The notes under the pieces: generated by a model
Seen by the model: only the letters and a program-made list of their open reading frames with translations
What the model was told of the DNA's origin: nothing
Database searches by the model: none
Made by a program: the position numbers and the translations under genes
Shown here: one piece after another, positions 2,315 through 19,122 of the stretch
Position numbering within the stretch: the first letter of the stretch is position 1
Layout: every line of letters starts with the position of its first letter
Assembly: GCA_048886525.1 (NCBI GenBank)
Contig: JBHLKP010000014.1
Coordinates: 9,460-29,459 of the forward strand
Origin: Candidatus Hodarchaeota archaeon
Lineage (GTDB): Archaea > Asgardarchaeota > Heimdallarchaeia > Hodarchaeales > Hodarchaeaceae
Direction of reading: 5' to 3'
DNA length: 20,000 nucleotides

Positions 2315-3346
2315 TTGTCAAAAACTATTGAAAAAGATACTGAATGGGATTTTTTCCGAACTCTGAAATCGAAGAAACTACAATGCTTAGCATGTCCCAG
2401 ATTCTGCCAACTTTCGGATAATGAGATTGGTTGGTGTGGTGCACGTGAAAACCAGGATGGTAGAATCATACCTCGTACTTATGGGTTGATTTCATCTCTA
2501 GCAATCGATCCCATCGAAAAAAAGCCTTTATATCATTTCCTTCCTGGAACAGGTATTTTATCAATAGGGTCTCATGGATGCAATCTAGGCTGCATACATT
2601 GTCAAAATCATTCAATTTCCATGGATCGCTCTATTTCATCTTTAAGAAGGATGACACCAGAGGAGCTTGTAGAAGCTGCACGTTCTAAAGGACTTCTATC
2701 AATTGCATCAACTTATAATGAGCCACTAATTGCTTTTGAATACGTTAGAGATATTGCAAATCTTGCCCATCAAAATAATATTAAAATGGTCGTTGTTGAT
2801 AATGGATATATAACAGAAAAGCTAGCTAGAATGATTGGAAGCTTACTTGATGGCGCCAATATAGATATCAAGGGATTTTCAAAAGAATTCTACAGAGAAA
2901 TATGTGATGCAAGAGGTTGGAAATCAATCTTAAGAACATGTGAGATTTTTTACCAGAAGGGTGTCCATTTGGAAATAACTAATCTTATAATCCCCACGAA
3001 GAATGATTCCATGGATATGATAAAAGATTTGTGTATTTGGATTCATGATAACCTTGATGCCAATATACCTTTACATTTCTCTCGATTCCATCCAGATCAC
3101 AAATTACTACATTTACCTCCCACACCACTTAAAACATTGGAATCAGCTTATGATATTGCGAAAAATGTTGGATTAAACCATGTATATATAGGTAATATAC
3201 GATCTCAGAAAGGGAATGATACTTATTGTCAGAAATGCAATAGTCTATTAATACAACGAAACGGATATTACACTAAAACCAAAAATATTCAAAATGGAAA
3301 ATGTAAAACTTGTCAAACTCCTATATATGGAGTTTTTTCTGATTGA
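2315..3346 (+). CDS. amrS: AmmeMemoRadiSam-system-type radical SAM enzyme
   Basis: LQCLACPRFCQLSDNEIGWCGARENQDGRI N-terminal cysteine module, radical SAM motif GCNLGCIHCQNHSIS, and a C-terminal CxxC...CxxC segment. TTG start with GAGGTGG about 10 nt upstream. Confidence 0.85.
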   Translation: MSKTIEKDTEWDFFRTLKSKKLQCLACPRFCQLSDNEIGWCGARENQDGRIIPRTYGLISSLAIDPIEKKPLYHFLPGTGILSIGSHGCNLGCIHCQNHSISMDRSISSLRRMTPEELVEAARSKGLLSIASTYNEPLIAFEYVRDIANLAHQNNIKMVVVDNGYITEKLARMIGSLLDGANIDIKGFSKEFYREICDARGWKSILRTCEIFYQKGVHLEITNLIIPTKNDSMDMIKDLCIWIHDNLDANIPLHFSRFHPDHKLLHLPPTPLKTLESAYDIAKNVGLNHVYIGNIRSQKGNDTYCQKCNSLLIQRNGYYTKTKNIQNGKCKTCQTPIYGVFSD

Positions 3347-3353
3347 GTTTAAT

Positions 3354-3833
3354 TTATGAACGCTTTTTCGATATACGAAACGGAATTTCTACAATCTTAC
3401 CTTTAAATAAGCTAAATATTCTTAGTTCTGGAAATTCTTCTACTCCTGCGATCATCCATATATATGGATATGGCCAAAAGTTCATATAATAGCGATCTTT
3501 CTCCGAAGGATAAATAGATGCTTTTTCAGGATGAGTATGAAAAAATCCAAGTAATCTAGCCCCCTTTTTTTCATGGATTTCAATTTCTTTTAACAAAATC
3601 TCATAATCGAGAGAAAAACTATACATTGAGTTATCTAAATTATCCATTAGTATAAAATTTCTCATTTGGATAATAGTTCCATCTTGGGTTCCAAATCCAA
3701 GTCCAACACTTTCAATCATTGAGGATTCGGCTGTTGTTTTTAGTATTTGTTTATATATACTAGAGTGCAGTAAGAGCATTAGTTCAGGATTATTATTGGA
3801 TCTAGATGTTTGGAAACCCAATTTATTAGCCAC
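3354..3833 (-). CDS. JAMM/MPN (JAB1-like) metalloprotease family protein
   Basis: GFFHTHPEKASIYPSEKD resembles the JAMM motif H-x-H...S-x-x-D, preceded by a MPN-like beta-rich region. Confidence 0.75.
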   Translation of the reverse strand: MANKLGFQTSRSNNNPELMLLLHSSIYKQILKTTAESSMIESVGLGFGTQDGTIIQMRNFILMDNLDNSMYSFSLDYEILLKEIEIHEKKGARLLGFFHTHPEKASIYPSEKDRYYMNFWPYPYIWMIAGVEEFPELRIFSLFKGKIVEIPFRISKKRS

Positions 3834-5334: not shown

Positions 5335-5448
5335 AATATGAATTATTCATCTTAGAAATAGTAAGTAATTAAAATAAAAAATTATTATTTGTTCTTTCAT
5401 CGAAAAGCTAAAAAAGATATTTGAACAAAGAGATTGAATTGAATAAAG

Positions 5449-6159
5449 ATGGTAACAGATCCACAACAAATTACAATTTCTGGAATAGGGATTGGTATTT
5501 TTTTATTATTTATAGGTTCTCTTCTTAACATTCCTTTGATATATGACATTGGCTTCATTATTTTCTTAGGAGCGATTCTTATTACATTTATCCAATGGTT
5601 GACAACAGGTGGGGTTGTTGAAATGCTGAATTGGCTTCCCTTAATTTTGATCTTTGCTATTATAATGACTTTAGGCAGCGATTTAGTCTCACAGTCAGAA
5701 GAAACTAATTTTCTTACTTTGCCTTTGATAATCATTGTTTTAATTATTGTTCTTGGATTCTTTGGCTCCCAAGGAGGGGATCTCAGTTTTATAGTCCCAT
5801 TTTTACCTGTTCTTATCGGTATCGGTCTAATAGGGGTAGTTACTGGAGAAATACTATGGCACGATTCTCTTAGAGGATTAACATACGGCATAGGGGTATT
5901 AGGAATTTTAGTAATGCTTATTTGGATAAAAGTGCGAAAATCACAGCGATTAATCCCGATAGTAGGAGAACGAACCTCAATCATAGGACGCCGTGGAAAA
6001 GTTACAGCTGAGATCAGTCCAAAGCAAGAAGGAAGGGTTAAAATCGGAGGAGCTATTTGGAAAGCTCAATCTGATGTATTAATTGAGGAGAATGAAACAG
6101 TAGAAGTGATTGGAATATCAGAGAACCAATTAATTTTACAAGTCACTCGAATGAAATAG
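5449..6159 (+). CDS. NfeD-like membrane protein
   Basis: Several hydrophobic helices followed by an OB-like C-terminal domain (IIGRRGKVTAEISPKQEGRVKIGGAIWKAQSDVLIEENETVEVIGISENQLILQV). Confidence 0.8.
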   Translation: MVTDPQQITISGIGIGIFLLFIGSLLNIPLIYDIGFIIFLGAILITFIQWLTTGGVVEMLNWLPLILIFAIIMTLGSDLVSQSEETNFLTLPLIIIVLIIVLGFFGSQGGDLSFIVPFLPVLIGIGLIGVVTGEILWHDSLRGLTYGIGVLGILVMLIWIKVRKSQRLIPIVGERTSIIGRRGKVTAEISPKQEGRVKIGGAIWKAQSDVLIEENETVEVIGISENQLILQVTRMK

Positions 6160-7436: not shown

Positions 7437-9635
7437 TTAACTATCTTCAAAGGCGTCGAGGATGTAAGTATAGATTTCTTTCTCGGTTCCGTGTGAAATT
7501 TGTTGTAATCTTCTTACTATTAATTCTGGAGTAGACTTTGCATATTTGTAGTATATTGGTGTTCGATTCACAATTAATTCCAAGTTCTCTGAAAGCCCTT
7601 GTGCTTCTATTCCATCTATTCGAATTTTTTCTTTAGCATATTTAGCAATTAATTGTGCCAGATGAGTCACAAACAAACCTACAGATTGCGGTGATTTCCC
7701 TAGCAGATCTAAAAAGGCTGCTATTACTCGAGCAGACGCCCCTGGTTCAGAAATACTTTCCATTTCATCCGCCAAGACTAATCGTGAGTTGGGACTGAGT
7801 ATCATCTGCGATAAAACACGTAATGTGCTTTCAAAGGCACCAGCATCCATATGCCCAGAAGATTTTCGATAATAATGAAGTTCCTCAAAACCACTAAGAA
7901 CAGCACGTTTACATGGTATTGGTAAACCCATTTGTCCTAGAATCACCATTATTGCCATGGATACTATTAATGTAGTTTTCCCTCCGCTATTAGCCCCTGA
8001 TAGAAGAATTATCCGTTCTCCATTAACTATTCCATTGATTTTACCAATTTCTCCAATTGCATATGTTACTGGATCTACCTGGATATTGCTTCTATGTTGT
8101 TCCCTCAGAAGAAATAAGTTTCGGGATTCTTCAACGATTAATCCCGTACCCTGATCTACAACAAGTTGGGGAATAATTAAATGATATTTCCCAGTGAATT
8201 TACCTATCATAAATAAATAATCTAACTCTAACATGCAATTAAGAGCGTTTTTAGCTAAGGATTCGAATTGGTTTAGAGATTTTGCTAACCCTACTTTTAA
8301 CTCAAAGGATTTCATCGCTCTTCGCTGACGCAAATATACTTTTACTCTTTCAGACACCTCCTCGACTGGATCTACTGGATAGCGAAGTTCCCTTGGAAAA
8401 ATACCAGAAATATAATCGGTTTCATCACTCTGTAGATTTAATTCATTAATTAAACGATCCTCGGCCTTAGTAATAATCTCTTCTACAACTAAATACAGTT
8501 CTTCGTCTAAATATTCACGTAATTCGGTTTTACCTCCATCTTTTGGATAAGGATGATCTTCTGTAGCCAAATCCTTTAACAATGCGAGGATTTTCTCACC
8601 TCCCAATTCAACAGTTGTTTCTTGAAATTTATTTTCTAATTCCTCATTCAAAGTCAATAGAATTTCAGCCAATTTTGTCTCAAAAATGCTCTCAGCTCTG
8701 AAAAGTCGTGAATATTCTTCATTTAAATTTTGATTTGGTTCTCCTGATTCATTTAGATTAATAAGTTCATTTCCCATTTTTACAAGCATATCTAGACTTA
8801 AATCACCTATAAAAGCTTCTAATTCCGAAGATGGAAGAGTTTGAAGCAGCTTGGCCAATCCTGATATTGACTCCAGAATTTTCTTATTTTGGGCAAAGAA
8901 ACTCAGAGTTTTCTCAGGTATTATTTGAAGTAGATTCTTACGTTGATTTTCTGGTAATACTACAACATTGGGAAATCCTTCATCAAGCATAATATCTGAG
9001 CCAATCCAAATAACCTCATCGTATCCACTAAAGATCTCCGATATTTGTTCCAAATTCTCAATATAAAGGATTTCAGAGTATCTATTAACTTCAGTTGAGC
9101 TAAGTTCTCCATATATTTCCTTATCAGCAGTTGCAATGACCCTAGACGCAGTATCAAGTTGAGTAATCTGATTTTTTAATGGTGAAAGGTTTCTAAATAG
9201 ATTATTGTAATCATTAAAAGAATGTGGAGATTTTTTGATTAACGAACTTAATCGATAACCGAGTCTTGAGGTTTGTTGACGATCTCTTATTTTTTCTATA
9301 GCGGAGAACGGTAATGGAAAGAATAAATACAATTTTGATCTGGAATACATTGTATTAGCAAATTTAGATATAATATCAATGGTTCGATTGTAGATCAGAA
9401 TAGCATCCTCAGTTTTCAAAAAATTTTGAATTTTTTCCCCAGTTTCTTGAAAATGTAAATTTCGACACAAATTCAGCGCAAATCGTTCACCTATCCCTTC
9501 CACTGAAGAAATTTCGGCAATCCGGGACTCTCTTAGGGCTGTTAACACCGCGTTTTCGCTCCCAAATGCTGATTTCAGTTTTTCTTCAACTGAAGGGCCT
9601 ATTCCACGTATTTCACGAAGATTGTTGACGATCAA
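7437..9635 (-). CDS. MutS-family ATPase with N-terminal helix-hairpin-helix region
   Basis: LREIRGIGPSVEEKL and ISSVEGIGERFALNL (HhH). C-terminal MutS ATPase with Walker A GANSGGKTTL, LVLADEMESISEPG and FVTHL. No Smr domain. Confidence 0.85.
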   Translation of the reverse strand: MIVNNLREIRGIGPSVEEKLKSAFGSENAVLTALRESRIAEISSVEGIGERFALNLCRNLHFQETGEKIQNFLKTEDAILIYNRTIDIISKFANTMYSRSKLYLFFPLPFSAIEKIRDRQQTSRLGYRLSSLIKKSPHSFNDYNNLFRNLSPLKNQITQLDTASRVIATADKEIYGELSSTEVNRYSEILYIENLEQISEIFSGYDEVIWIGSDIMLDEGFPNVVVLPENQRKNLLQIIPEKTLSFFAQNKKILESISGLAKLLQTLPSSELEAFIGDLSLDMLVKMGNELINLNESGEPNQNLNEEYSRLFRAESIFETKLAEILLTLNEELENKFQETTVELGGEKILALLKDLATEDHPYPKDGGKTELREYLDEELYLVVEEIITKAEDRLINELNLQSDETDYISGIFPRELRYPVDPVEEVSERVKVYLRQRRAMKSFELKVGLAKSLNQFESLAKNALNCMLELDYLFMIGKFTGKYHLIIPQLVVDQGTGLIVEESRNLFLLREQHRSNIQVDPVTYAIGEIGKINGIVNGERIILLSGANSGGKTTLIVSMAIMVILGQMGLPIPCKRAVLSGFEELHYYRKSSGHMDAGAFESTLRVLSQMILSPNSRLVLADEMESISEPGASARVIAAFLDLLGKSPQSVGLFVTHLAQLIAKYAKEKIRIDGIEAQGLSENLELIVNRTPIYYKYAKSTPELIVRRLQQISHGTEKEIYTYILDAFEDS

Positions 9636-9715
9636 AGTAATTTCCGTTCACTCTATATTATTGAAAAGGAAAATTAAATTTGACTTTTTGCTTTTTTTCT
9701 GATAAAAGTTTTTTA

Positions 9716-10627
9716 TTAGATTTTAGTAACTTTCTGTGCTGAAGTTAATTCTACGAACTTATTAACTTCGGAGTACGAACAATGGTCTGAGTACGGAAAG
9801 AAATGAACATCCATTCGTTTTTGTTTTATTTGTAATGCCCAACCAGTAGGAGAAATTCGTAATGCATCAGAAACTTTAGATTCTACAAGATTATCAATTC
9901 CATGAAGGTTCTCAACCATCCTTCGGCTTCCTACAAAGACGCCTGAATCAGCATTATTTGTAAAAAAATCCCATTCTCCTCCGATTTCTTTATAGATTTC
10001 CACTTTGTATTTTGGTGCCCAAATCTTTATTTTTAAGGCTTCACTTACAGTTTTTAAAAGTAATTCTTTCCCTATTTGATATGCAGCAATCCATACATCC
10101 CTTTCAGGATAATTGTTATTAGAGAGAATCAATGTAATTATTTCTGAAATTAATACCTGTCTTTCTGGAAACTGAAATTTTGGATTCCTTCCATATGTAT
10201 AATCTAGCCAAATATGATCAGCGTCTTTAATTAAGTCAATTTCATCCATAATTGGTGATCCGAGCCTAAAGTCTCCTGTATATACTTCTTTTAAGCCCCC
10301 TTCAGACTCGATAACGAACATTAGACTTCCCAGGCAATGATTAGCGTCTAAAGCATGTACTATATAAGAATCAAAATCTAATGACTGATTTGGTTTAATA
10401 ATTAGACACTTCTCTTTAGGAACCCCATGGAGAACTTTAATGACTGCAAAAGTTTCCTTAGAACACACAATTGTCGAATCAGGATCCGATAAGCTCAATT
10501 TTATACCTAACATGTGATCATTATGACCATGGGAGAGAAAAAAGTAGTTTGAAGATGGTTTACGATGATCTCTCCGTCTAAATGGAAACTCATCGAAGTA
10601 GCTTTTGGCAATCGAAGAGTAAACCAT
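9716..10627 (-). CDS. SNM1/Pso2/Artemis-like beta-CASP metallo-beta-lactamase nuclease
   Basis: LSHGHNDHMLG, ANHCLGSLMFVIE, VYTGDFRLG, WLDYTYG, WIAAYQIGKELLLKTVSEAL, ISPTGWAL and FFPYSDHCSYSEVNKFVELTSAQKV follow the SNM1-family motif order. Confidence 0.8.
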   Translation of the reverse strand: MVYSSIAKSYFDEFPFRRRDHRKPSSNYFFLSHGHNDHMLGIKLSLSDPDSTIVCSKETFAVIKVLHGVPKEKCLIIKPNQSLDFDSYIVHALDANHCLGSLMFVIESEGGLKEVYTGDFRLGSPIMDEIDLIKDADHIWLDYTYGRNPKFQFPERQVLISEIITLILSNNNYPERDVWIAAYQIGKELLLKTVSEALKIKIWAPKYKVEIYKEIGGEWDFFTNNADSGVFVGSRRMVENLHGIDNLVESKVSDALRISPTGWALQIKQKRMDVHFFPYSDHCSYSEVNKFVELTSAQKVTKI

Positions 10628-10819
10628 AAAATAACCTCAAAAATTTAAGTTTATTTGCTTTATATCAGTCTCAGTAAAATTCCGTCTTCTATCTTTAAAA
10701 AAGTTCCTTTCGGGATTTAAGGTGGTTAAAACTTACTAGGTACTTTTTTTAAAAAATTAATTAATGCTTTTAGCAATCAAAACATAGAAAAGAATCTTAT
10801 TGCGAATGATGTTCTTGGG

Positions 10820-10961
10820 GATTCTGTTTCCGGGTTCGGAACGAGACCGGGTGTAACTCAGGCCCTTTGGCCGGGCAATACCCAAGCTTTCCAATGTTCC
10901 CGTAGGCGCGAGCACAACAGTACAGATCAGAACGGAGCCTAACTTAACTTTCGGCAGAATC
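10820..10961 (-). rRNA. Circularly permuted 5S rRNA gene (permuted core 10950->10830, 121 nt; terminal stem 10961-10955/10826-10820)
   Basis: Minus strand reads GATTCTGCCGA|AAGTTAAG|TTAGGCTC|CG|TTCTGAT|CTGTA|CTGTTGTGC(TCGC)GCCTACGG|GAAC|ATTGGAA|AGCTTGGG(TATTG)CCCGG|CCAAA|GGGCCTGA|GTTACAC|CCGG|TCTCGTTCCGAAC|CCGG|AAA|CAGAATC. It contains the 5S loop B (AAGUUAAG), loop E/helix V and loop C (CUCGUUCCGAAC) signatures, but with the 3' half before the 5' half. Confidence 0.85.
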
Positions 10962-11023
10962 TCGCAAGATTTAACGCAACAGATTATTAGTGTTATTAGA
11001 CACCAATAGAAGCAAAATTAAAA

Positions 11024-11040
11024 GTCTTTATATACTTTTT
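11024..11040 (-). promoter_or_regulatory. Archaeal BRE/TATA promoter for the permuted 5S RNA
   Basis: Minus strand AAAAAGTATATAAAGAC. TATA centre at about 11030 would place the start site around 11003-11008, upstream of the RNA core. Confidence 0.65.
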
Positions 11041-11143
11041 TCATTTACCTTTTCCTTAATATTAAGTAGTGTTTTATAACTCGTGTAAGTTATTAAGAAT
11101 CAATATTCAAATTATCTTTAGAATCCGTTTTTTATGAACGTAT

Positions 11144-11968
11144 TTGGGTTTCAGTATGCTTTGGTCAGATTGGAAGAATTCTTACAATGAAATTGTTAAG
11201 GAATTAGGGCTCGATGCTAAAGCTGACGAAAAAACATCAAACTTATTAGACGAATTTTTTATTAAACTCAATTCTGATAAGAAAAAATATATTCAACAAC
11301 GATTAAATCAGGTTTTTCAAAAACCAGTAATTATTTTTGGGGCTGGCCCTTCCTTAGATCGGGATTTTAGTAACATATTAACATTAAATATAAACTCAAG
11401 ACTACAATTAGTCTCTATAAATGGCGCTACAACATTATTTCAATTGAAAAAGGTTATTCCATCTGTTGTGATATCTGATCTTGATGGTGATTTGTCCACG
11501 ATCAAGTGGGCAATAGAAAATGGTGCTTTAACCCTTATTCATGCCCATGGAGATAATCATGATCTCATCTATGAATTTTTAAAAGAACATCATGAAATCA
11601 TTTCAAGATTTGATGTTTGGGGGACAACACAATGCAAACCGAGAGATTCATTATTAAATTTTGGTGGGTTTACCGATGGAGACAGGGCTATTTTCATTGC
11701 ATTTCACTTCCAATCTCCTTTGATTGGTTTAGCTGGTTTTGATTTTGGAACCAAAATAGGACATTATAGTTTCGTAAACTCTTCTGTGCACAAAAATAAT
11801 GAATTAAAAATAAGAAAATTTGAAATTGCCTTAAATTTGATCGCAAGGTTCCATTCATTTCATAAAGGGCTTCGGTTCAATCTAACAACTCAAGGAAATG
11901 CCATACCAGGTTTTCCTAAATCAAATTTTCATACTTTTCTTGACCAATTGGCTGAATACTACAAGTAG
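11144..11968 (+). CDS. mptE: MptE-like 6-hydroxymethyl-7,8-dihydropterin pyrophosphokinase (ATG 11156 is an alternative start)
   Basis: VIIFGAGPSLDRDF, VVISDLDGDL, LIHAHGDNHDLI, WGTTQCKP, GGFTDGDRA and LAGFDFG motifs of the archaeal DUF115/MptE family. Confidence 0.8.
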   Translation: MGFSMLWSDWKNSYNEIVKELGLDAKADEKTSNLLDEFFIKLNSDKKKYIQQRLNQVFQKPVIIFGAGPSLDRDFSNILTLNINSRLQLVSINGATTLFQLKKVIPSVVISDLDGDLSTIKWAIENGALTLIHAHGDNHDLIYEFLKEHHEIISRFDVWGTTQCKPRDSLLNFGGFTDGDRAIFIAFHFQSPLIGLAGFDFGTKIGHYSFVNSSVHKNNELKIRKFEIALNLIARFHSFHKGLRFNLTTQGNAIPGFPKSNFHTFLDQLAEYYK

Positions 11969-12482
11969 CTCGATAACAAGAAGTTTCCCATATTGTAATA
12001 TTTATCTTCTCTATTCGCGGCCAGAATTTCTCTAATTTAAGTTTATCTTGAATTTTCTCTCCTAGAATTTTTGCTAAAGCCTCCGTAGTTACATTAGAAC
12101 ATTCTAATATACGTACTTCATCTTTTGGAATGGAATAGAATCGTACTCCGTATTCGATATCCAAGTTATTTTCATGTCTACCTATTTTTATATTTGGATT
12201 ATTTGAGGGAAGTAAAACGTAATGATCCCATTTTGAAAGAAGGTTATTCAACAGCTTTTCAAGATATAAGAAGTCAATGATTATTTCATTTGTATCAGTT
12301 TTTCCCTCAAGTTCAATTGCAACATGGTAGTTATGACCATGCAAGCCTTCTTCAATTCCATCTGAAATTAAAGCATGTGATGCGCTAAAATGAGCTGCAA
12401 TTTTATCGATTGCAACAGAAGTTGAATAATGGGGGTTTTTCCTCAAAAAATTCAACCATCGCCTGTTTCTTCCCCGTACCAA
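11916..12482 (-). CDS. 6-pyruvoyl-tetrahydropterin synthase-like protein with PTPS-III-type ExxHGH motif
   Basis: HFSASHAL, EEGLHGHNYHVAIELEG, IIIDFLYL, LSKWDHYVLLP and VTTEALAKIL...INITIWET are PTPS/QueD family motifs. The 3' end overlaps mptE by 53 bp (convergent). Confidence 0.8.
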   Translation of the reverse strand: MVRGRNRRWLNFLRKNPHYSTSVAIDKIAAHFSASHALISDGIEEGLHGHNYHVAIELEGKTDTNEIIIDFLYLEKLLNNLLSKWDHYVLLPSNNPNIKIGRHENNLDIEYGVRFYSIPKDEVRILECSNVTTEALAKILGEKIQDKLKLEKFWPRIEKINITIWETSCYRATCSIQPIGQEKYENLI

Positions 12483-13450
12483 TCCCCACCCCTCATATCT
12501 AGAAATGCAGAGATAGCTGCTGTTGTTCCTTCCCCAACCGCTACAGCGATTTGCCCTTGACCAGGAGTAATATCACCACAAGCATAAACTCGAGGAATAT
12601 TTGTGCGTTGATTTTTATCAACTTTGATAAGACCATCTTCGGTTAATTCGACACCAATTTTCTTAGCCAGCTCATTATTAGGAATGATACCAATAGCTAT
12701 AAAAACAGCTTTCACCCTAAGAGAACTTACTTCTCCAGTATTCACGTCTTCTAACGTAATCTTCTTTACTCCGGCCTCAGACCCGTGAATTTCTTTAACA
12801 ACTGTATTCCAGACAAAATTTACTTTGGAATTCTTAAGAATTTGATTTCGAAGTGATTCCTCAGCCCGTAACTGATCACGACGATGTATCAAGTATACAG
12901 GGGCGGCTCCAGCACCAAATGTGGTCCCAGGTATTATATTATCAAGGTATAAAGCTTCTGTTACCGCAGAATTGCCTCCACCTACGACAGCCACTTTTTT
13001 TCCTTTATATAAAGGACCATCGCAAGTAGCACAGTAAGAAACTCCCTTACCCTCATTTTCCTCTTCTCCAGGAACGTTAAGGTGACGATGATTTGTACCA
13101 GTCGCAAGAATGACAATTTTTGAAGTAAAAATACCTGAACTAGTGTGTACTTCGATTGGAAATTGATTTGGCTTAATATCTGTCACTTCTACCATATCTT
13201 TTACCTCAGCTCCAAATTTTTCGGCTTGTTTTCTCAATTTTTCAGCAAATTCGAGGCCAGATATTTCAGAAAAGCCAGGGTAGTTTTCAATGATAGGTGT
13301 TATAGCAGCTAGACCTCCTACCGCCCCTTTATCAATTACTAAGGTTTTCCATCCCATTCTAGAGCCATAAATCGCAGATGCCATACCTGCTGGTCCAGCG
13401 CCAACAATAATCATGTCATAATCAGGAGTAATTCCCATACTAGCGTACAC
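12452..13450 (-). CDS. trxB: Thioredoxin-reductase-like FAD/NAD(P) oxidoreductase
   Basis: DYDMIIVGAGPAGMASAIYGSR, redox-active CATCDGP, VAVVGGGNSAVTEALYL and VYACGDITPGQGQIAVAVGEG. Confidence 0.9.
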   Translation of the reverse strand: MYASMGITPDYDMIIVGAGPAGMASAIYGSRMGWKTLVIDKGAVGGLAAITPIIENYPGFSEISGLEFAEKLRKQAEKFGAEVKDMVEVTDIKPNQFPIEVHTSSGIFTSKIVILATGTNHRHLNVPGEEENEGKGVSYCATCDGPLYKGKKVAVVGGGNSAVTEALYLDNIIPGTTFGAGAAPVYLIHRRDQLRAEESLRNQILKNSKVNFVWNTVVKEIHGSEAGVKKITLEDVNTGEVSSLRVKAVFIAIGIIPNNELAKKIGVELTEDGLIKVDKNQRTNIPRVYACGDITPGQGQIAVAVGEGTTAAISAFLDMRGGDWYGEETGDG

Positions 13451-16512: not shown

Positions 16513-19122
16513 TTAGTCAACAGAAAAAACCTCTTCTATCACCATAATGTCATCTATAAAAACATCAAGATCGCCCAACCACATTGGAAGGATTTTTTCG
16601 TGTTTTTTCTCAAAATTTGTTAAGAAGCTTGAAAGCTTTTTTCGAAGCTCTGTTGATGTTGTATCTGCAAATATTGCAGCAAACACATACTTTGCGTATT
16701 CTATTGTTAGAACTACATCGCCATGATCGATTGTTTTCAATAATTGTTCACTCCTTACAGCTTCTTTAGCAAATGATGTGATAGCTGAAAAAAGACCAGC
16801 AACTAGAGCTGGTTCGACTTGTGATTCTGCAGCAAAAGTATGAGATAAAACAGCTCTTCCATCTAACATCATAATATGTAAAGAATCGATTGTGACTTCC
16901 TTAAATGAGTAGGAAAATTCTTTGTGAAGAATGGTTAAAACTTGCTTGAGAGGAACTTCCAAATCAAATGTTAGTTCATCTAATATCTCTTGGATTTGAG
17001 TTACTTTTAATCCAGTTTCACGGTTTAATTCTACCAAAGACTTTTCTTTTCCAGAGATTGCCTCATAAAGGTTAGATCCATTTCCAATGTTTTGCAGTTT
17101 TTCATCAATTTGCATTTTCAATGTAGCATCTGTAATACGAGGTGCACCAATCATAATTATATCAGCTTTTTTTAGCATTTCGTTTTTAGAGGGTAGTTGA
17201 GAGACTTCTGAAAAGATAGACTTGTATTGGGTTTTTCCTTCTCCAGATTGAGTTTTCACACGAAATTTTCGTCTAGCTAAGAAAAACATGGCTCCATATG
17301 TCATTAATATTGCTAATGGATGAAAAATATTATAGGGAATTGATAGATACCCCAGAAATTGTCCCCCAGTTCCTTTCCATATTACTTCTATTTGAATCAG
17401 TTGAGGAATTATAAACTGAAACTGATTAAAAGTGCCTTCTTTCCACACTGAAGACAGCCATGTTGACGTTACTCCTGTTCCCGTAAAGCCAGCAAAAAGA
17501 TTTGCTACCACTGTAATAAATGGGGCAATTAAACCAGTATAATTATAATGAGGAAAAGGATCAAATTCAGAAAATCCTAGTAGAATATACCATTTTTCTT
17601 TGTAGTAGGTGAAAATAAGAAGACTAACCAAAAACATTGTAACGTATACAATAACTGTTGTCCCAATCAGACTCCAATTCCATCTTCGGATGAATAAGAT
17701 CAAAGCAGCACAAAGAAGAAAACTAGCGAAATTTTGTGTTAACCAGAAGAATGTCCTATAATGAACAGTTTCTAAATATCTCCACATACCCAGCATAAAT
17801 ACACGATAGGTTAGAAAACCAAAGGCAAGTAAAAAGCCGAAAATTACGCCTATTAATGCTGATTTGGCTGTATTCATAAGATCTATACGCTTAAGTGATA
17901 TCTTTAGATTTTTAAAAGTTCCAATAAGTTTTAATAGCAAATAAACAGAAAAAGGTTCAAAAATATCAAGGTACATGACGAAAAAGACTGATACCATTAT
18001 AAAATATACAACAAAATATGAAATTACGAAAATTTGATCAGAGTATTGAACTAAGAACAGGATAACAGCTAATCCTGACATAAATGCTCCTACAGTCGAT
18101 AAACTTTGAACCATGGCAATATATAATTGATTTCCTAAAAATTTTCCTTTTAACGATAATTGACTCGCTTTAATAAGGTATACAGAGAAGACTATTGTTG
18201 CTATATATGCAAAGAAAATTTCTAAAAACCAACCCATTGTTGTCCCTTGCAATAAGCTAGGATTTTCAGTCTCTCCGAGTAGTTGAAGAATGGTCATAAG
18301 AAGAAATAGTGTAATGGGTAAAATTGCGATCAGTACTTTTAGTAGTTCTCGTTCATTTTCCCAATTTTTCGCTTTTACTCGTGTTATAATTTCTTGAAAT
18401 GGTGATACTTCCATCTCAAATTGTATCCCTTGAAGTCTCTGAGTTACTCCTCGTACCTCATTTAACTGTCTTTTTAAATCCTTAGTATCTCTTTCTAAAT
18501 CGTTAATATCATGAGTTTTATCTTGGGATGTTTCTTTCATTTGTTTTTGGAGTCTTTTAATCTCATCTTGATTATGTTTAATTAATCGCTTGATAGGCTT
18601 TCTGTCATTCCTTTTCGCACCCCAAGTTTGGTATAGCAAAATTCCCATTGATAAAAATGGTGAAATCCCAAAGACAAATCCTAAAACAATAATCGGATAG
18701 TTCAGGTAATTTACTATAGAAATAATGAAATGTTGTATTAAATACCGTATAATTATTGGTACTCCAGGAATTGTTGCATTATCAGGACTAGCTGTAGTAT
18801 CCCATTCAGTGCTGAATTGGTAGCCCTTGTAGCCAGGTACAGGATAATATTCTTGACTCAGATATTGTTGGGGATTTGGTACTAATGAATTTAAAATAGA
18901 AGGAAACACAAAATAACCAATATAGAAAATGATAAAACCTATATAGAAGCGATTGAAGATGATTGCTATGAGATTTTCGTCTTTTCTACGAGTAAAAAGG
19001 TAAGGGAAAAAGAAAATTATAAGAGGTAAGAAAGTTACAATAATGGAGAATAAAATATTTGTTGGATCGTCAAATAATGCCATTTCTTTCCATCCTGCTT
19101 CATCTAATCGAATATAAACCAA
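16513..19122 (-). CDS. Large multi-pass membrane protein with cytosolic coiled coil and C-terminal longin/roadblock-like domain (ATG 19083 is an alternative start)
   Basis: About a dozen hydrophobic segments and a coiled coil (KQMKETSQDKTHDINDLERDTKDLKRQLNEVRG). The soluble C-terminus (LHIMMLDGRAVLSHTF...EPALVAGLFSAITSFAKEAV...) resembles a segment of the convergent HerA-like protein. Confidence 0.65.
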   Translation of the reverse strand: MVYIRLDEAGWKEMALFDDPTNILFSIIVTFLPLIIFFFPYLFTRRKDENLIAIIFNRFYIGFIIFYIGYFVFPSILNSLVPNPQQYLSQEYYPVPGYKGYQFSTEWDTTASPDNATIPGVPIIIRYLIQHFIISIVNYLNYPIIVLGFVFGISPFLSMGILLYQTWGAKRNDRKPIKRLIKHNQDEIKRLQKQMKETSQDKTHDINDLERDTKDLKRQLNEVRGVTQRLQGIQFEMEVSPFQEIITRVKAKNWENERELLKVLIAILPITLFLLMTILQLLGETENPSLLQGTTMGWFLEIFFAYIATIVFSVYLIKASQLSLKGKFLGNQLYIAMVQSLSTVGAFMSGLAVILFLVQYSDQIFVISYFVVYFIMVSVFFVMYLDIFEPFSVYLLLKLIGTFKNLKISLKRIDLMNTAKSALIGVIFGFLLAFGFLTYRVFMLGMWRYLETVHYRTFFWLTQNFASFLLCAALILFIRRWNWSLIGTTVIVYVTMFLVSLLIFTYYKEKWYILLGFSEFDPFPHYNYTGLIAPFITVVANLFAGFTGTGVTSTWLSSVWKEGTFNQFQFIIPQLIQIEVIWKGTGGQFLGYLSIPYNIFHPLAILMTYGAMFFLARRKFRVKTQSGEGKTQYKSIFSEVSQLPSKNEMLKKADIIMIGAPRITDATLKMQIDEKLQNIGNGSNLYEAISGKEKSLVELNRETGLKVTQIQEILDELTFDLEVPLKQVLTILHKEFSYSFKEVTIDSLHIMMLDGRAVLSHTFAAESQVEPALVAGLFSAITSFAKEAVRSEQLLKTIDHGDVVLTIEYAKYVFAAIFADTTSTELRKKLSSFLTNFEKKHEKILPMWLGDLDVFIDDIMVIEEVFSVD

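Follow-up and report, generated by a model that had tools for sequence, protein, structure and literature searches.

A circularly permuted 5S rRNA gene in Asgard archaea with a predicted processing stem of the bulge-helix-bulge type

5S rRNA genes are among the most conserved and most easily annotated of all genes. We found that the 5S rRNA gene in a stretch of 20,000 nucleotides from a Hodarchaeales genome (hereafter the window) is circularly permuted. The gene lies on the minus strand (predicted mature part 10948-10828) and encodes the 3' part of the molecule before the 5' part, the former termini being joined by a linker, as follows from two partial Rfam matches and from the behaviour of two models (R1 and R2) described below. 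Leader and trailer of the predicted precursor pair in a 7-bp stem (H1). We put at about 0.6 the probability that H1 forms the outer helix of a processing stem, built from leader and trailer, in the precursor of the permuted 5S rRNA, from which the tRNA-splicing endonuclease EndA and the ligase RtcB would produce a circular 5S rRNA.

A permuted 5S rRNA gene shared by many Asgard archaea

The Rfam 5S rRNA family (RF00001, with a curated threshold of 38 bits) gave no match that reached the gathering threshold, neither in the window nor in any of 13 homologous loci. Two partial matches were obtained in the window, one of model positions 37-120 at 10960-10878 (12.3 bits) and one of model positions 27-51 at 10852-10828 (19.6 bits), and since a normal 5S rRNA has these two parts in the opposite order, the gene is permuted. 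A permuted model (R1) matches the window locus over its full length with 135 bits. Model R2 was built from sequences that had been joined in silico at the predicted cut sites and opened again in the loop of helix I. This model matches a canonical archaeal 5S rRNA (locus L050, confirmed by Rfam) over the full length (positions 1-117, 92.1 bits, E 1.7e-26) and the annotated rrfH gene of E. coli with 42.3 bits (E 6e-11), whereas R1 reaches only 28.8 bits on the same canonical archaeal locus. The canonical topology, with five helices and loops A-E, is recovered once the ends are joined, as seen from the full-length homology of R2. An initial annotation of this DNA, made from the sequence, was therefore correct in its underlying claim that the 5S rRNA gene at this locus is circularly permuted.

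The same permuted order was found in approximately 90 homologous loci (35 from genomes and 57 from metagenomes), which comprise 66 distinct sequences. The genome records that carry a homolog are almost all Asgard MAGs labelled Heimdall, Hod, Hermod, Thor or Promethearchaeia. Relatives share synteny at the locus. One decayed partial copy is present in L031.

Among the 66 distinct sequences, 96.0% of the cells of the core structure are paired versus 74.8% in shuffles, compensatory changes occur in 27 of the 35 core pairs, and all five 5S helices covary. The covariation score of the core is 0.592 versus 0.196 for shuffled alignments and at most 0.10 with the partners slid, the latter control being quoted because the core alignment is a covariance-model alignment and leans towards the structure of the model. 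Applied to a simple MAFFT alignment of the two clades, RNAalifold found 12 pairs only, because MAFFT misaligned the clades in helices I and II. Folding of the single sequence 10985-10780 was set aside as evidence (z-score only -1.27).

The gene appears to be equipped with transcription signals of its own (Table 1). Besides the TATA-box-like element in the window, a block (A/T)ATATTTAAAGACTCTTGA or AAGTATATAAAGACTTTTGA stands at the same upstream distance in the clade A homologs, and the usual archaeal spacing between TATA box and start site places the predicted transcription start near 11005 +/- 3. An equivalent of the leader hairpin, with changed pairs, was found in L020, L046 and L039. The two U4 runs likely represent an archaeal oligo-T terminator, and T-runs stand at the equivalent place in nearly all homologs. 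A scan for sigma-70 promoters and intrinsic terminators gave nothing useful and is irrelevant for an archaeon.

Table 1. Features of the permuted 5S rRNA locus in the window, in the direction of transcription
Feature	Positions	Strand	Details and basis
TATA-box-like promoter element	11027..11034	-	UAUAUAAA; read from sequence
Leader hairpin	10985..11008	-	UAUUGGUGU 11008-11000, loop CUAAUA, ACACUAAUA 10993-10985; cofold MFE
Outer leader-trailer helix, 5' strand	10975..10984	-	AUCU (10984-10981) pairs with AGAU (10797-10794), GUUGCG (10980-10975) with CGCAAU (10804-10799)
Middle helix, 5' strand	10965..10969	-	UCUUG (10969-10965) pairs with CAAGA (10817-10813); MFE and energy evaluation
H1, 5' strand	10955..10961	-	GAUUCUG; exact complement of 10826-10820; covaries in 56 distinct flanks
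Leader element, central helix 5' strand	10951..10954	-	CCGA; pairs with helix III 3' strand
5' bulge/loop	10948..10950	-	AAG; predicted cut between 10949 and 10948; G10948 is the first mature nucleotide
Predicted mature 5S rRNA, permuted order	10828..10948	-	121 nt; Rfam partial matches, model R1, covariation, model R2
Loop B, 3' side	from 10948	-	GUUAAG; start of predicted mature 5S rRNA
Helix II, 3' strand	10942-10934	-	within predicted mature 5S rRNA
Helix V / loop E / helix IV / loop D	10931-10890	-	within predicted mature 5S rRNA
Capped helix I hairpin	10887-10870	-	within predicted mature 5S rRNA
Helix II, 5' strand	10865-10858	-	within predicted mature 5S rRNA
Helix III and loop C	10850-10830	-	followed by AA; within predicted mature 5S rRNA
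Helix III 3' strand, also central helix 3' strand	10830..10833	-	CCGG; covariation
3' bulge	10827..10829	-	AAA; exactly 3 nt between central helix and H1; predicted cut between 10828 and 10827
H1, 3' strand	10820..10826	-	CAGAAUC; exact complement; covariation
Trailer strands	10794..10817	-	CAAGA 10817-10813 (middle helix), CGCAAU 10804-10799 and AGAU 10797-10794 (outer helix); folding
U4 runs	10779..10791	-	10791-10788 and 10782-10779; directly after outer helix

The leader-trailer stem and its junction with the 5S core

The initial annotation described three nested complementarities between leader and trailer: H1, GCGA (10965-10962) with UCGC (10805-10802), and AAUCUU (10971-10966) with AAGAUU (10798-10793), the last two separated by an AAU bulge. 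All three are literally present on the minus strand, and so is the AAU bulge (10801-10799), but the same strand also contains a 14-nt bulge (10819-10806). With both bulges (14 nt and 3 nt) on one strand, we rejected the three pairings as a bulge-helix-bulge (BHB) motif. Taken as sequence alone the 7-bp stem is weak evidence, because a perfect 7-mer complement occurs anywhere between two 45-nt flanks of the same composition in ~12% of the shuffles; a 7-mer complement anchored exactly at the junction positions was found in 0 of 20000. Across 56 distinct homologous flanks the position of H1 is kept and the stem covaries, the three pairs nearest the junction being paired in 93-95% with 4-5 pair types each.

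Comparison of homologs, which had been suggested as a check on these pairings, thus bears out the 7-bp stem but not the two outer pairings. Among 21 distinct clade A trailers, a complement to the tetramer G(C/U)GA was found in 3 only and a complement to the hexamer in 1, the window itself, and eight relatives carry GUGA without a compensating change. Homologs and energies both indicate that the nested outer pairings are in the wrong register. In an alternative register the same trailer bases pair with leader bases further upstream, forming the middle and outer helices of Table 1, and this register is ~7 kcal/mol better (-47.8 vs -40.7) and corresponds to the outer helix of the relatives (e.g. 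CUUGUUGUG/CGCGACAAG in L085, UGCGCC/GGCGCA in L014 and UGUGCU/AGCACA in L031). The middle helix is specific to the window; relatives show other short pairings at that place.

What the initial annotation had missed, and what appears to be the decisive element, is the 4-nt leader element between H1 and GUUAAG, which together with the AAA gives rise to a BHB-like core. By the published definition a BHB has a helix of 4 bp with a 3-nt bulge on at least one side (PMC4731332), and here a central helix is indeed flanked by a 3-nt bulge that is closed by an outer helix. In the window the central helix consists of C10954-G10830, C10953-G10831, G10952-C10832 and an A10951.C10833 mismatch; the subgroup with this mismatch counts 11 sequences, the window included, and has three central pairs only. 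The 5' strand of H1 is contiguous with the central helix and the 3' strand reads CCGG-AAA-CAGAAUC. The 3' bulge has 3 nt in 52 of the 56 distinct flanks, its third nucleotide varies (A/U/G/C), and the base after it has its partner immediately 5' of the leader element (pair 12-38, paired in 93%).

Across the 56 distinct gapless-anchored flanks, 91% of the cells of the central helix are paired, with compensatory variants, and the covariation score of the motif is 0.511 versus 0.171 for shuffled flanks. Leader element and helix III 3' strand read CCGG/CCGG in 39 relatives, CUGG/CCAG in 3 and CUGA/UCAG in 1, next to a number of wobble variants. Wherever the 3' strand is non-palindromic (CUGG/CCAG three times, CUGA/UCAG, CUGG/UCAG and CUGG/UCGG), the leader element is always its complement and never a copy; the notion that the leader CCGG-AA is a duplicate left over from a tandem duplication was rejected on account of these CCAG, UCAG and UCGG lineages. 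The AA that follows in the leader is kept as well (the first A is invariant, the second is present in at least 90%), which counts for the motif because both would be discarded.

Judged from its geometry in the sequence, the motif is best described as a relaxed BHB of the bulge-helix-loop form, because no closed 3-nt bulge is formed at the 5' cleavage site. For the strict hBHBh' form a second 3-nt bulge closed by a second outer helix is lacking (AAG is followed by UUAAG), and the sole candidate for a 5' closing helix, GUU/AAC (3 bp), would leave a 2-nt bulge and consists of bases that were fixed by the search patterns. Native helix III is a competitor of the BHB conformer, which in nearest-neighbour calculations on the window is 3.8 kcal/mol less stable (-31.6 vs -35.4). 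Loci of clade C carry ~36 extra nt between the motif and GUUAAG, which the simple model leaves unexplained; their proximal element was rejected as a BHB half, being without an adjacent H1, and the distal UCAG beside an H1 of 11-12 bp fits better.

Proposed maturation and alternative explanations

Transcription of the minus strand from the gene's own TATA promoter would yield a transcript of ~220 nt, in which the leader is followed by the 3' side of loop B, the 3' strand of helix II and helix V / loop E / helix IV, and then by the 5' half, i.e. the capped helix I hairpin, the 5' strand of helix II, helix III with loop C, and the trailer. In the precursor, leader and trailer would form H1 (7 bp) and the four leader bases CCGA would occupy the 3' strand of helix III, leaving AAA and AAG over on the 3' and the 5' strand, respectively, in what would be a relaxed BHB. 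EndA would then cut two nucleotides into each bulge. The symmetric BHB rule, by which a cut falls two nucleotides beyond the central helix on its 3' side, puts these sites at 10949/10948 and 10828/10827. RtcB would join the ends, leader, trailer and stem would be discarded, and helix III would then form with its own 5' strand. The predicted product is a covalently closed 5S rRNA of 121 nt with a canonical loop B (...CCGGAA-GUUAAG...).

Symmetric cuts and ligation carried out in silico join ...CCGGAA to GUUAAG..., which is exactly the canonical loop B, in circles of 119-122 nt; the predicted ligated junctions are ...CCGAACCCGGAA joined to GUUAAG... and ...UCCGAACCCGGAA joined to GUUAAG(U/A).... 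A search for the clade A ligated junction in JGI metagenome contigs gave 0 matches, that is, no canonical-order relative and no transcript-derived contig, and is uninformative about the RNA. Of the fates that had been suggested earlier, the comparative data favour the one in which the tRNA-splicing machinery cleaves and circularises the RNA, as it does with permuted tRNAs; the enzymes, the exact cut sites, the ligation and the circular end state are inferred.

The main picture of the initial annotation was a different one, in which the mature 5S rRNA is linear and permuted and the retained leader-trailer helix keeps its new ends joined at loop B. It is true that the stem protrudes from the junction of helix III and loop B and that the termini pair outside the core; moreover, H1 is conserved and covaries, nothing in the DNA proves cleavage, and the 5S rRNA of brown-algal mitochondria is permuted in its final product too (PMC4267664). 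Nevertheless, the length of H1 ranges from 3 to 12 bp, with a three-way junction after it in clade B and long variable helices in clade A, and such variation is typical of discarded processing stems. Retention would also leave CCGRAA and a long duplex inside loop B, and explains neither why the leader element changes in step with the 3' strand of helix III so as to remain its complement nor why this strand and H1 lie exactly 3 nt apart. The stem is thus unlikely to persist in the mature RNA, from which the predicted cuts would remove it. It is similarly improbable that the precursor is cleaved and not ligated, or is trimmed by other nucleases, leaving a nick in the 3' strand of loop B across which helices II and III and ribosomal proteins would hold the molecule together. 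Leader-trailer helices are general devices of rRNA processing (PMC11404451), and such a nick may be structurally tolerable with the 5' strand of loop B linking helices II and III, but the exact combination of a 4-bp helix and a 3-nt bulge points to EndA and not to a double-strand RNase. The products of EndA (a 2',3'-cyclic phosphate and a 5'-OH) are the standard substrates of RtcB and are circularised in every known archaeal case (PMC4731332), and the predicted ends abut without a missing or extra nucleotide.

If circularisation does take place, the circle could still be an intermediate that is reopened in the loop of helix I to give a linear 5S rRNA of normal covalent order, as the initial annotation had suggested. 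Such a step would parallel the permuted tRNA genes (cited in PMC4267664) and the circular pre-rRNA intermediates of 16S and 23S rRNA (PMC12918454). Helix I, however, is not formed by free 5' and 3' ends: it is a conserved loop-closed hairpin of 7-8 bp, which in more than half of the 66 distinct sequences is capped by a loop of the UUCG/UNCG type, with closing pairs that covary, and this indicates selection for a stable cap rather than for a cleavage site. A second BHB or other conserved processing motif is not visible at helix I, and we know of no enzyme that would reopen a circular 5S rRNA in the helix I loop, so that a product of normal order seems quite unlikely. That we are dealing with a pseudogene or decaying relic left by a rearranged 5S rRNA gene, with accidental complementarity, has a practically negligible probability. 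The missing Rfam call and the decayed partial copy in L031 would fit such a reading, yet it is at odds with compensatory changes in all five helices among 66 distinct sequences, with the conservation of promoter, terminator and synteny, with the full-length match of the rebuilt molecule to canonical 5S rRNA and with closed Asgard genomes for which no canonical 5S rRNA is reported (PMC8813620).

Comparison with known systems and implications

The proposed maturation to a circular 5S rRNA resembles that of the permuted SRP RNA gene of Thermoproteus (Plagens et al. 2015, eLife, PMC4731332), which likewise encodes a universal structured RNA, is missed by standard searches, has its own TATA promoter and gives rise to a leader and a trailer that fold into a BHB. 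The SRP RNA is cut by the tRNA-splicing endonuclease, RtcB is its proposed ligase and the mature RNA is a circle, the circularity that results from this BHB pathway having been shown experimentally (PMC4731332), whereas the corresponding steps for 5S rRNA are predicted only. The two cases also differ in the RNA, in the host (Asgard archaea instead of Thermoproteales), in the much wider distribution of the permuted 5S rRNA gene, and in the central helix, which in the 5S rRNA precursor would borrow the functional 3' strand of helix III, captured by a leader element that mimics the 5' strand. Because of this capture the BHB form and the native fold of 5S rRNA are mutually exclusive.

Permuted tRNA genes, which are reported for Thermofilum as well as for Cyanidioschyzon merolae, are organised in a comparable manner. 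In the latter, too, a 3' half, a linker and a 5' half succeed each other, and the BHB at the junction is processed via a circular RNA (PMC4267664). Circles of permuted tRNAs are opened again when RNase P and tRNase Z act on the acceptor ends, whereas the former ends of the 5S rRNA lie in a stable capped hairpin. The processing stems of archaeal 16S and 23S rRNA are also leader-trailer stems with a BHB, from which EndA and RtcB circularise the rRNA, and for circular 23S rRNA and the permuted 23S rRNA of the Thermococcales the circular or permuted form is found in ribosomes in some lineages (PMC12918454, PMC7758197, bioRxiv 10.64898/2026.03.23.713588). Those genes are colinear with the canonical rRNA and the permutation comes about in the RNA, unlike the 5S rRNA gene, which is itself permuted.

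Permuted 5S rRNA has been described for the mitochondria of stramenopiles, brown algae in particular (mtPerm-5S; Valach et al. 2014, PMC4267664), with a closed hairpin in place of helix I, and it is likewise missed by the standard 5S rRNA model. That RNA is an organellar, linear permuted product formed with no BHB and no ligation, and its ends lie at the alpha/gamma three-way junction (loop A). At the window locus the predicted ends lie not at loop A but between the 3' strand of helix III and the 3' side of loop B, at a splicing-type motif. In the engineered 23S-cp5S (Huang et al. 2020, PMC7283268) the native 5S rRNA ends are linked as well, by a 4-nt connector, and functional ribosomes assemble. 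This artificial construct was made in bacteria, is part of a fusion with 23S rRNA and has its opening in loop C or D; ribosomes of E. coli accept the linked ends (PMC7283268), which shows that a capped helix I is tolerated. In the literature we found only organellar, 23S, SRP or engineered cases and no prior report of a permuted or circular archaeal 5S rRNA.

The permuted gene explains the published failure to find 5S rRNA in closed Asgard genomes (Heimdall and Loki), in which 5S genes 'could not be predicted' (PMC8813620): standard pipelines (Rfam, RNAmmer-type HMMs) report Asgard genomes without 5S rRNA because the gene is permuted lineage-wide. The quality scores of MAGs that count rRNAs are affected too. 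Whether a large part of the Asgard archaea, spanning both Heimdall/Hodarchaeales-type and Loki-type lineages, carries a circular 5S rRNA in its ribosomes, made from a permuted gene by EndA and RtcB with a leader that transiently replaces the 5' strand of helix III, is to our judgement an even bet. If true, no circular 5S rRNA would have been known before, nor a permuted 5S rRNA gene in any cellular (non-organellar) genome, and the age of the trait would be such that the archaea most closely related to the eukaryotes have it in common. BHB-dependent circularisation would then extend to a third rRNA, against the current literature, which describes it for 16S and 23S 'but not 5S' (PMC12918454). 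The competition between the leader element and the 5' strand of helix III may act as a built-in order switch, with processing first and final folding second, and these archaea would offer a natural experiment on why the termini and the autonomy of 5S rRNA are conserved.

Identity of the permuted 5S locus and its homologs

The window is AT-rich archaeal DNA (34% GC) carrying MptE-like, PTPS, HerA, beta-CASP, archaeal MutS-like and tRNA-Val genes, with a GC-rich island in the 516-bp gap separating the ORFs at 10627 and 11144. No 5S was called in the window at the Rfam threshold; permissive settings gave two partial matches, both on the minus strand, and from their order it follows that the 3' part of the 5S is encoded upstream of the 5' part. 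An 869-aa ORF elsewhere in the window (16513-19122, minus strand) was without a Pfam match at E <= 0.001.

Features of the permuted 5S locus in the window
Feature	Position	Strand	Basis or remark
TATA-like box	11034-11027	minus	inside block conserved among clade A loci
Leader hairpin, 9 bp	11008-10985	minus	about at predicted transcription start
Outer helix, AUCU with AGAU	10984-10981 with 10797-10794	minus	cofolding
Outer helix, GUUGCG with CGCAAU	10980-10975 with 10804-10799	minus	cofolding
Variable short helix, UCUUG with CAAGA	10969-10965 with 10817-10813	minus	cofolding
Rfam 5S model positions 37-120 (helix III 3' strand to 3' end)	10960-10878	minus	permissive partial match
Hairpin joining former 5S termini (helix I)	10887-10870	minus	
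Rfam 5S model positions 27-51 (helix III / loop C)	10852-10828	minus	permissive partial match
Oligo-U runs, after outer helix	10791-10779	minus	

A genome scan (one genome per species, with a pattern requiring loop E ahead of loop C) yielded 40 loci, about 35 in Asgard MAGs labelled Heimdall-, Hod-, Hermod- or Thorarchaeota, Promethearchaeota or Promethearchaeia, the remainder being chance bacterial matches. Metagenome contigs, scanned with a looser pattern, gave a further 57 loci, plus one canonical archaeal 5S (L050) and one chance match. The predicted mature RNAs comprise 66 distinct sequences of 119-122 nt, which sort into clade A (the type found in the window, from Heimdall/Hod-labelled MAGs), clade B and a small clade C. 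Rfam called a 5S in none of the 13 permuted loci tested, in contrast to 98 bits for L050. The neighbourhood is conserved across Heimdall/Hod-type MAGs (window 7437-13450 and clade A loci), with MutS-like and DRMBL-type metallo-beta-lactamase genes on one flank and MptE-like, PTPS and pyridine-nucleotide-disulphide oxidoreductase genes on the other; the window shows synteny with these loci and 77% identity to a Hodarchaeota MAG across 7.7 kb. The TATA-like box and oligo-U runs have counterparts at corresponding positions in homologs, and the leader hairpin is kept with changed pairs in the nearest relatives (L020, L046 and L039); elsewhere in clade A another hairpin occupies this place.

Some loci showed peculiarities of their own. 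MAG YT1_021 holds two permuted copies on separate contigs (L012 and L037) with identical mature sequence. Locus L031 has, 225 nt upstream of its intact copy (3570-3691), a decayed partial second copy (3130-3290, plus strand; 29.4 bits with the covariance model R1 described below), in which the promoter block, leader, H1 strand, CTGG-AAG and the helix II/V/IV half are discernible and the 3' half is lost. The clade B Asgard copy L019 (DATKTW010000142.1, 724-819), identical to those of several Promethearchaeota MAGs, lies on a contig labelled Candidatus Nanopelagicaceae bacterium, which is probably mis-binned. About 260 nt from the permuted 5S of L062 we found a 100-nt tRNA match (5418-5517, minus strand), long enough to hold an intron.

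The core is a genuine, constrained 5S. R1, built from clade A predicted mature RNA in permuted order (35 pairs), matches every homolog full length, the window with 135 bits at 10948-10828. In the R1-based alignment 96.0% of cells are standard pairs (74.8% when shuffled), 27 of the 35 pairs show both-sided changes, and helices II, V, IV, I and III each contain compensatory changes. The covariation score was 0.592, against 0.196 shuffled and at most 0.10 with partners slid by 1-3 columns, the latter being the fairer comparison because the alignment was fitted to R1. A second model, R2, built after in-silico joining of the predicted ends and opening of the helix I loop, aligns with the canonical 5S of L050 from end to end (92.1 bits, E 1.7e-26) and matches annotated E. 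coli rrfH with 42.3 bits (E 6e-11), whereas R1 scored only 28.8 bits on L050.

Pairing between leader and trailer

The initial annotation proposed three nested pairings outside the core, and all three complementarities are exact on the minus strand: GAUUCUG (10961-10955) with CAGAAUC (10826-10820), here called H1 with 3' strand H1', GCGA (10965-10962) with UCGC (10805-10802) and AAUCUU (10971-10966) with AAGAUU (10798-10793). The sequence by itself gives them little weight. With two 45-nt flanks of the same composition, about 12% of shuffles contain a perfect 7-mer complement somewhere between them, and folding of the entire region is no better than that of shuffled sequences (z -1.27). The case depends on comparison of homologs. 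There H1 held up, its three junction-proximal pairs being paired in 93-95% of 56 distinct flanks with 4-5 pair types each, and we conclude that this 7-bp stem is genuine and conserved and that it matters for function.

The outer pairings did not survive the comparison: GCGA/UCGC is found in 3 of 21 clade A flanks (eight relatives have GUGA, with no compensation) and AAUCUU/AAGAUU in one of 21. Cofolding of leaders and trailers instead gave, beyond H1, a variable short helix followed by a conserved outer helix (GCGCC/GGCGC type) in which compensatory variants occur. Both registers are possible because of a near-repeat in the leader (AAUCU-GUUGCG and AAUCUU-GCGA); in the window the alternative is better by 7 kcal/mol, and the outer pairings proposed initially are mis-registered. 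All clade A leaders also keep UG(C/U)GAG just 5' of H1 (window 10962-10967, minus strand), opposite C(C/U)CC in the trailers, which may lengthen H1 to 9 bp (second position A.C or A-U) or serve as a protein contact.

A bulge-helix-bulge-like motif at the junction

Throughout clades A and B the leader runs H1, a 4-nt element and AA/G-UUAAR, and the 3' end runs GAAC, helix III 3' strand, AA/N and H1' (slashes at the predicted cuts). Among 56 distinct flanks, anchored without gaps at the junction, pairing between the element and the helix III 3' strand holds in 91% of cells, with a covariation of 0.511 (shuffled 0.171, slid no more than 0.17). Since CCGG is its own complement, copy and complement look alike in most sequences, and it is the variants that discriminate: CUGG/CCAG (three lineages), CUGA/UCAG, CUGG/UCAG, CUGG/UCGG and CUGG/CCGG (four lineages). 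Where the 3' strand is non-palindromic the element is never identical to it; it reads as the helix III 5' strand, either exactly or as a wobble variant. The window and ten relatives have CCGA, giving three pairs plus an A.C mismatch.

The helix III 3' strand is separated from H1' by exactly 3 nt, and on the other strand H1 is contiguous with the element. Across the 56 flanks this fits the definition of a bulge-helix-bulge (BHB), the substrate motif of the archaeal tRNA-splicing endonuclease EndA, that was applied to Thermoproteus SRP RNA, i.e. a 4-bp helix, a 3-nt bulge and an outer helix (PMC4731332). The second bulge is without a demonstrable closing helix, so the motif belongs to the relaxed bulge-helix-loop type. 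Conservation extends to the leader AA, though the predicted cuts would discard it. In clade C (L061, L066, L073 and L083) an 11-12 bp H1 is followed directly by UCAG, about 40 nt upstream of GUUAAG, and here too the element pairs perfectly with the helix III 3' strand (CUGA) and corresponds to its 5' partner; the intervening 36 nt or so contain a conserved covarying hairpin (UCUGGA-GGAAU-UCCAGA). Either this hairpin would be kept as an expansion in loop B of a circle of about 157 nt, or a second, proximal element would be used.

Predicted maturation and related systems

BHB motifs are usually cleaved symmetrically: on either strand the cut falls two nt 3' of the central helix. Joining the window sequence in silico at such cuts gives ...CCGAACCCGGAA-GUUAAGUUAGG..., which restores the canonical 5S loop B sequence (compare L050) with no base lost or gained; the predicted product has 121 nt in total. 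The most economical reading, with enzymes, cut sites and ligation as we infer them, is that the stem between leader and trailer forms first, with the helix III 3' strand captured by the leader element, after which EndA would cut both strands and the ligase RtcB would join the ends; the element would depart with the leader, rendering helix III formation irreversible and leaving a circular 5S as end product.

Literature searches turned up no permuted or circular 5S from archaea. A 2026 paper states that circularisation applies to 16S and 23S 'but not 5S' (PMC12918454), and the authors of closed Asgard genomes noted that 5S genes 'could not be predicted' (PMC8813620). The closest analogue is Thermoproteus SRP RNA, which is permuted, BHB-processed and circular (PMC4731332). 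Circularisation of 16S and 23S has the enzymes in common with the proposed route but not the gene permutation, and brown-algal mitochondrial 5S is permuted at another site and remains linear (PMC4267664). In E. coli, ribosomes function with an engineered 5S whose native ends are linked (PMC7283268).

Three other fates of the transcript rank lower: the leader-trailer stem could be retained in the mature 5S, the product could be nicked, or the circle, like those from the related permuted tRNA genes, could be re-opened, here at helix I. Helix I is a hairpin of 7-8 bp, and in more than half of the 66 sequences its loop is UUCG or otherwise of the UNCG type (closing pairs C-G, A-U and G-C), which argues for a permanent cap and against a second cleavage site there. 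By nearest-neighbour energies the BHB conformer of the window lies 3.8 kcal/mol above the native fold, a penalty that is small but not nothing, and a search of metagenome contigs for the ligated clade A junction gave no match. Our preferred interpretation is that the stem belongs to a BHB-like motif, as its outer helix, and is thrown away when the permuted 5S, widespread in Asgard archaea, is made circular.
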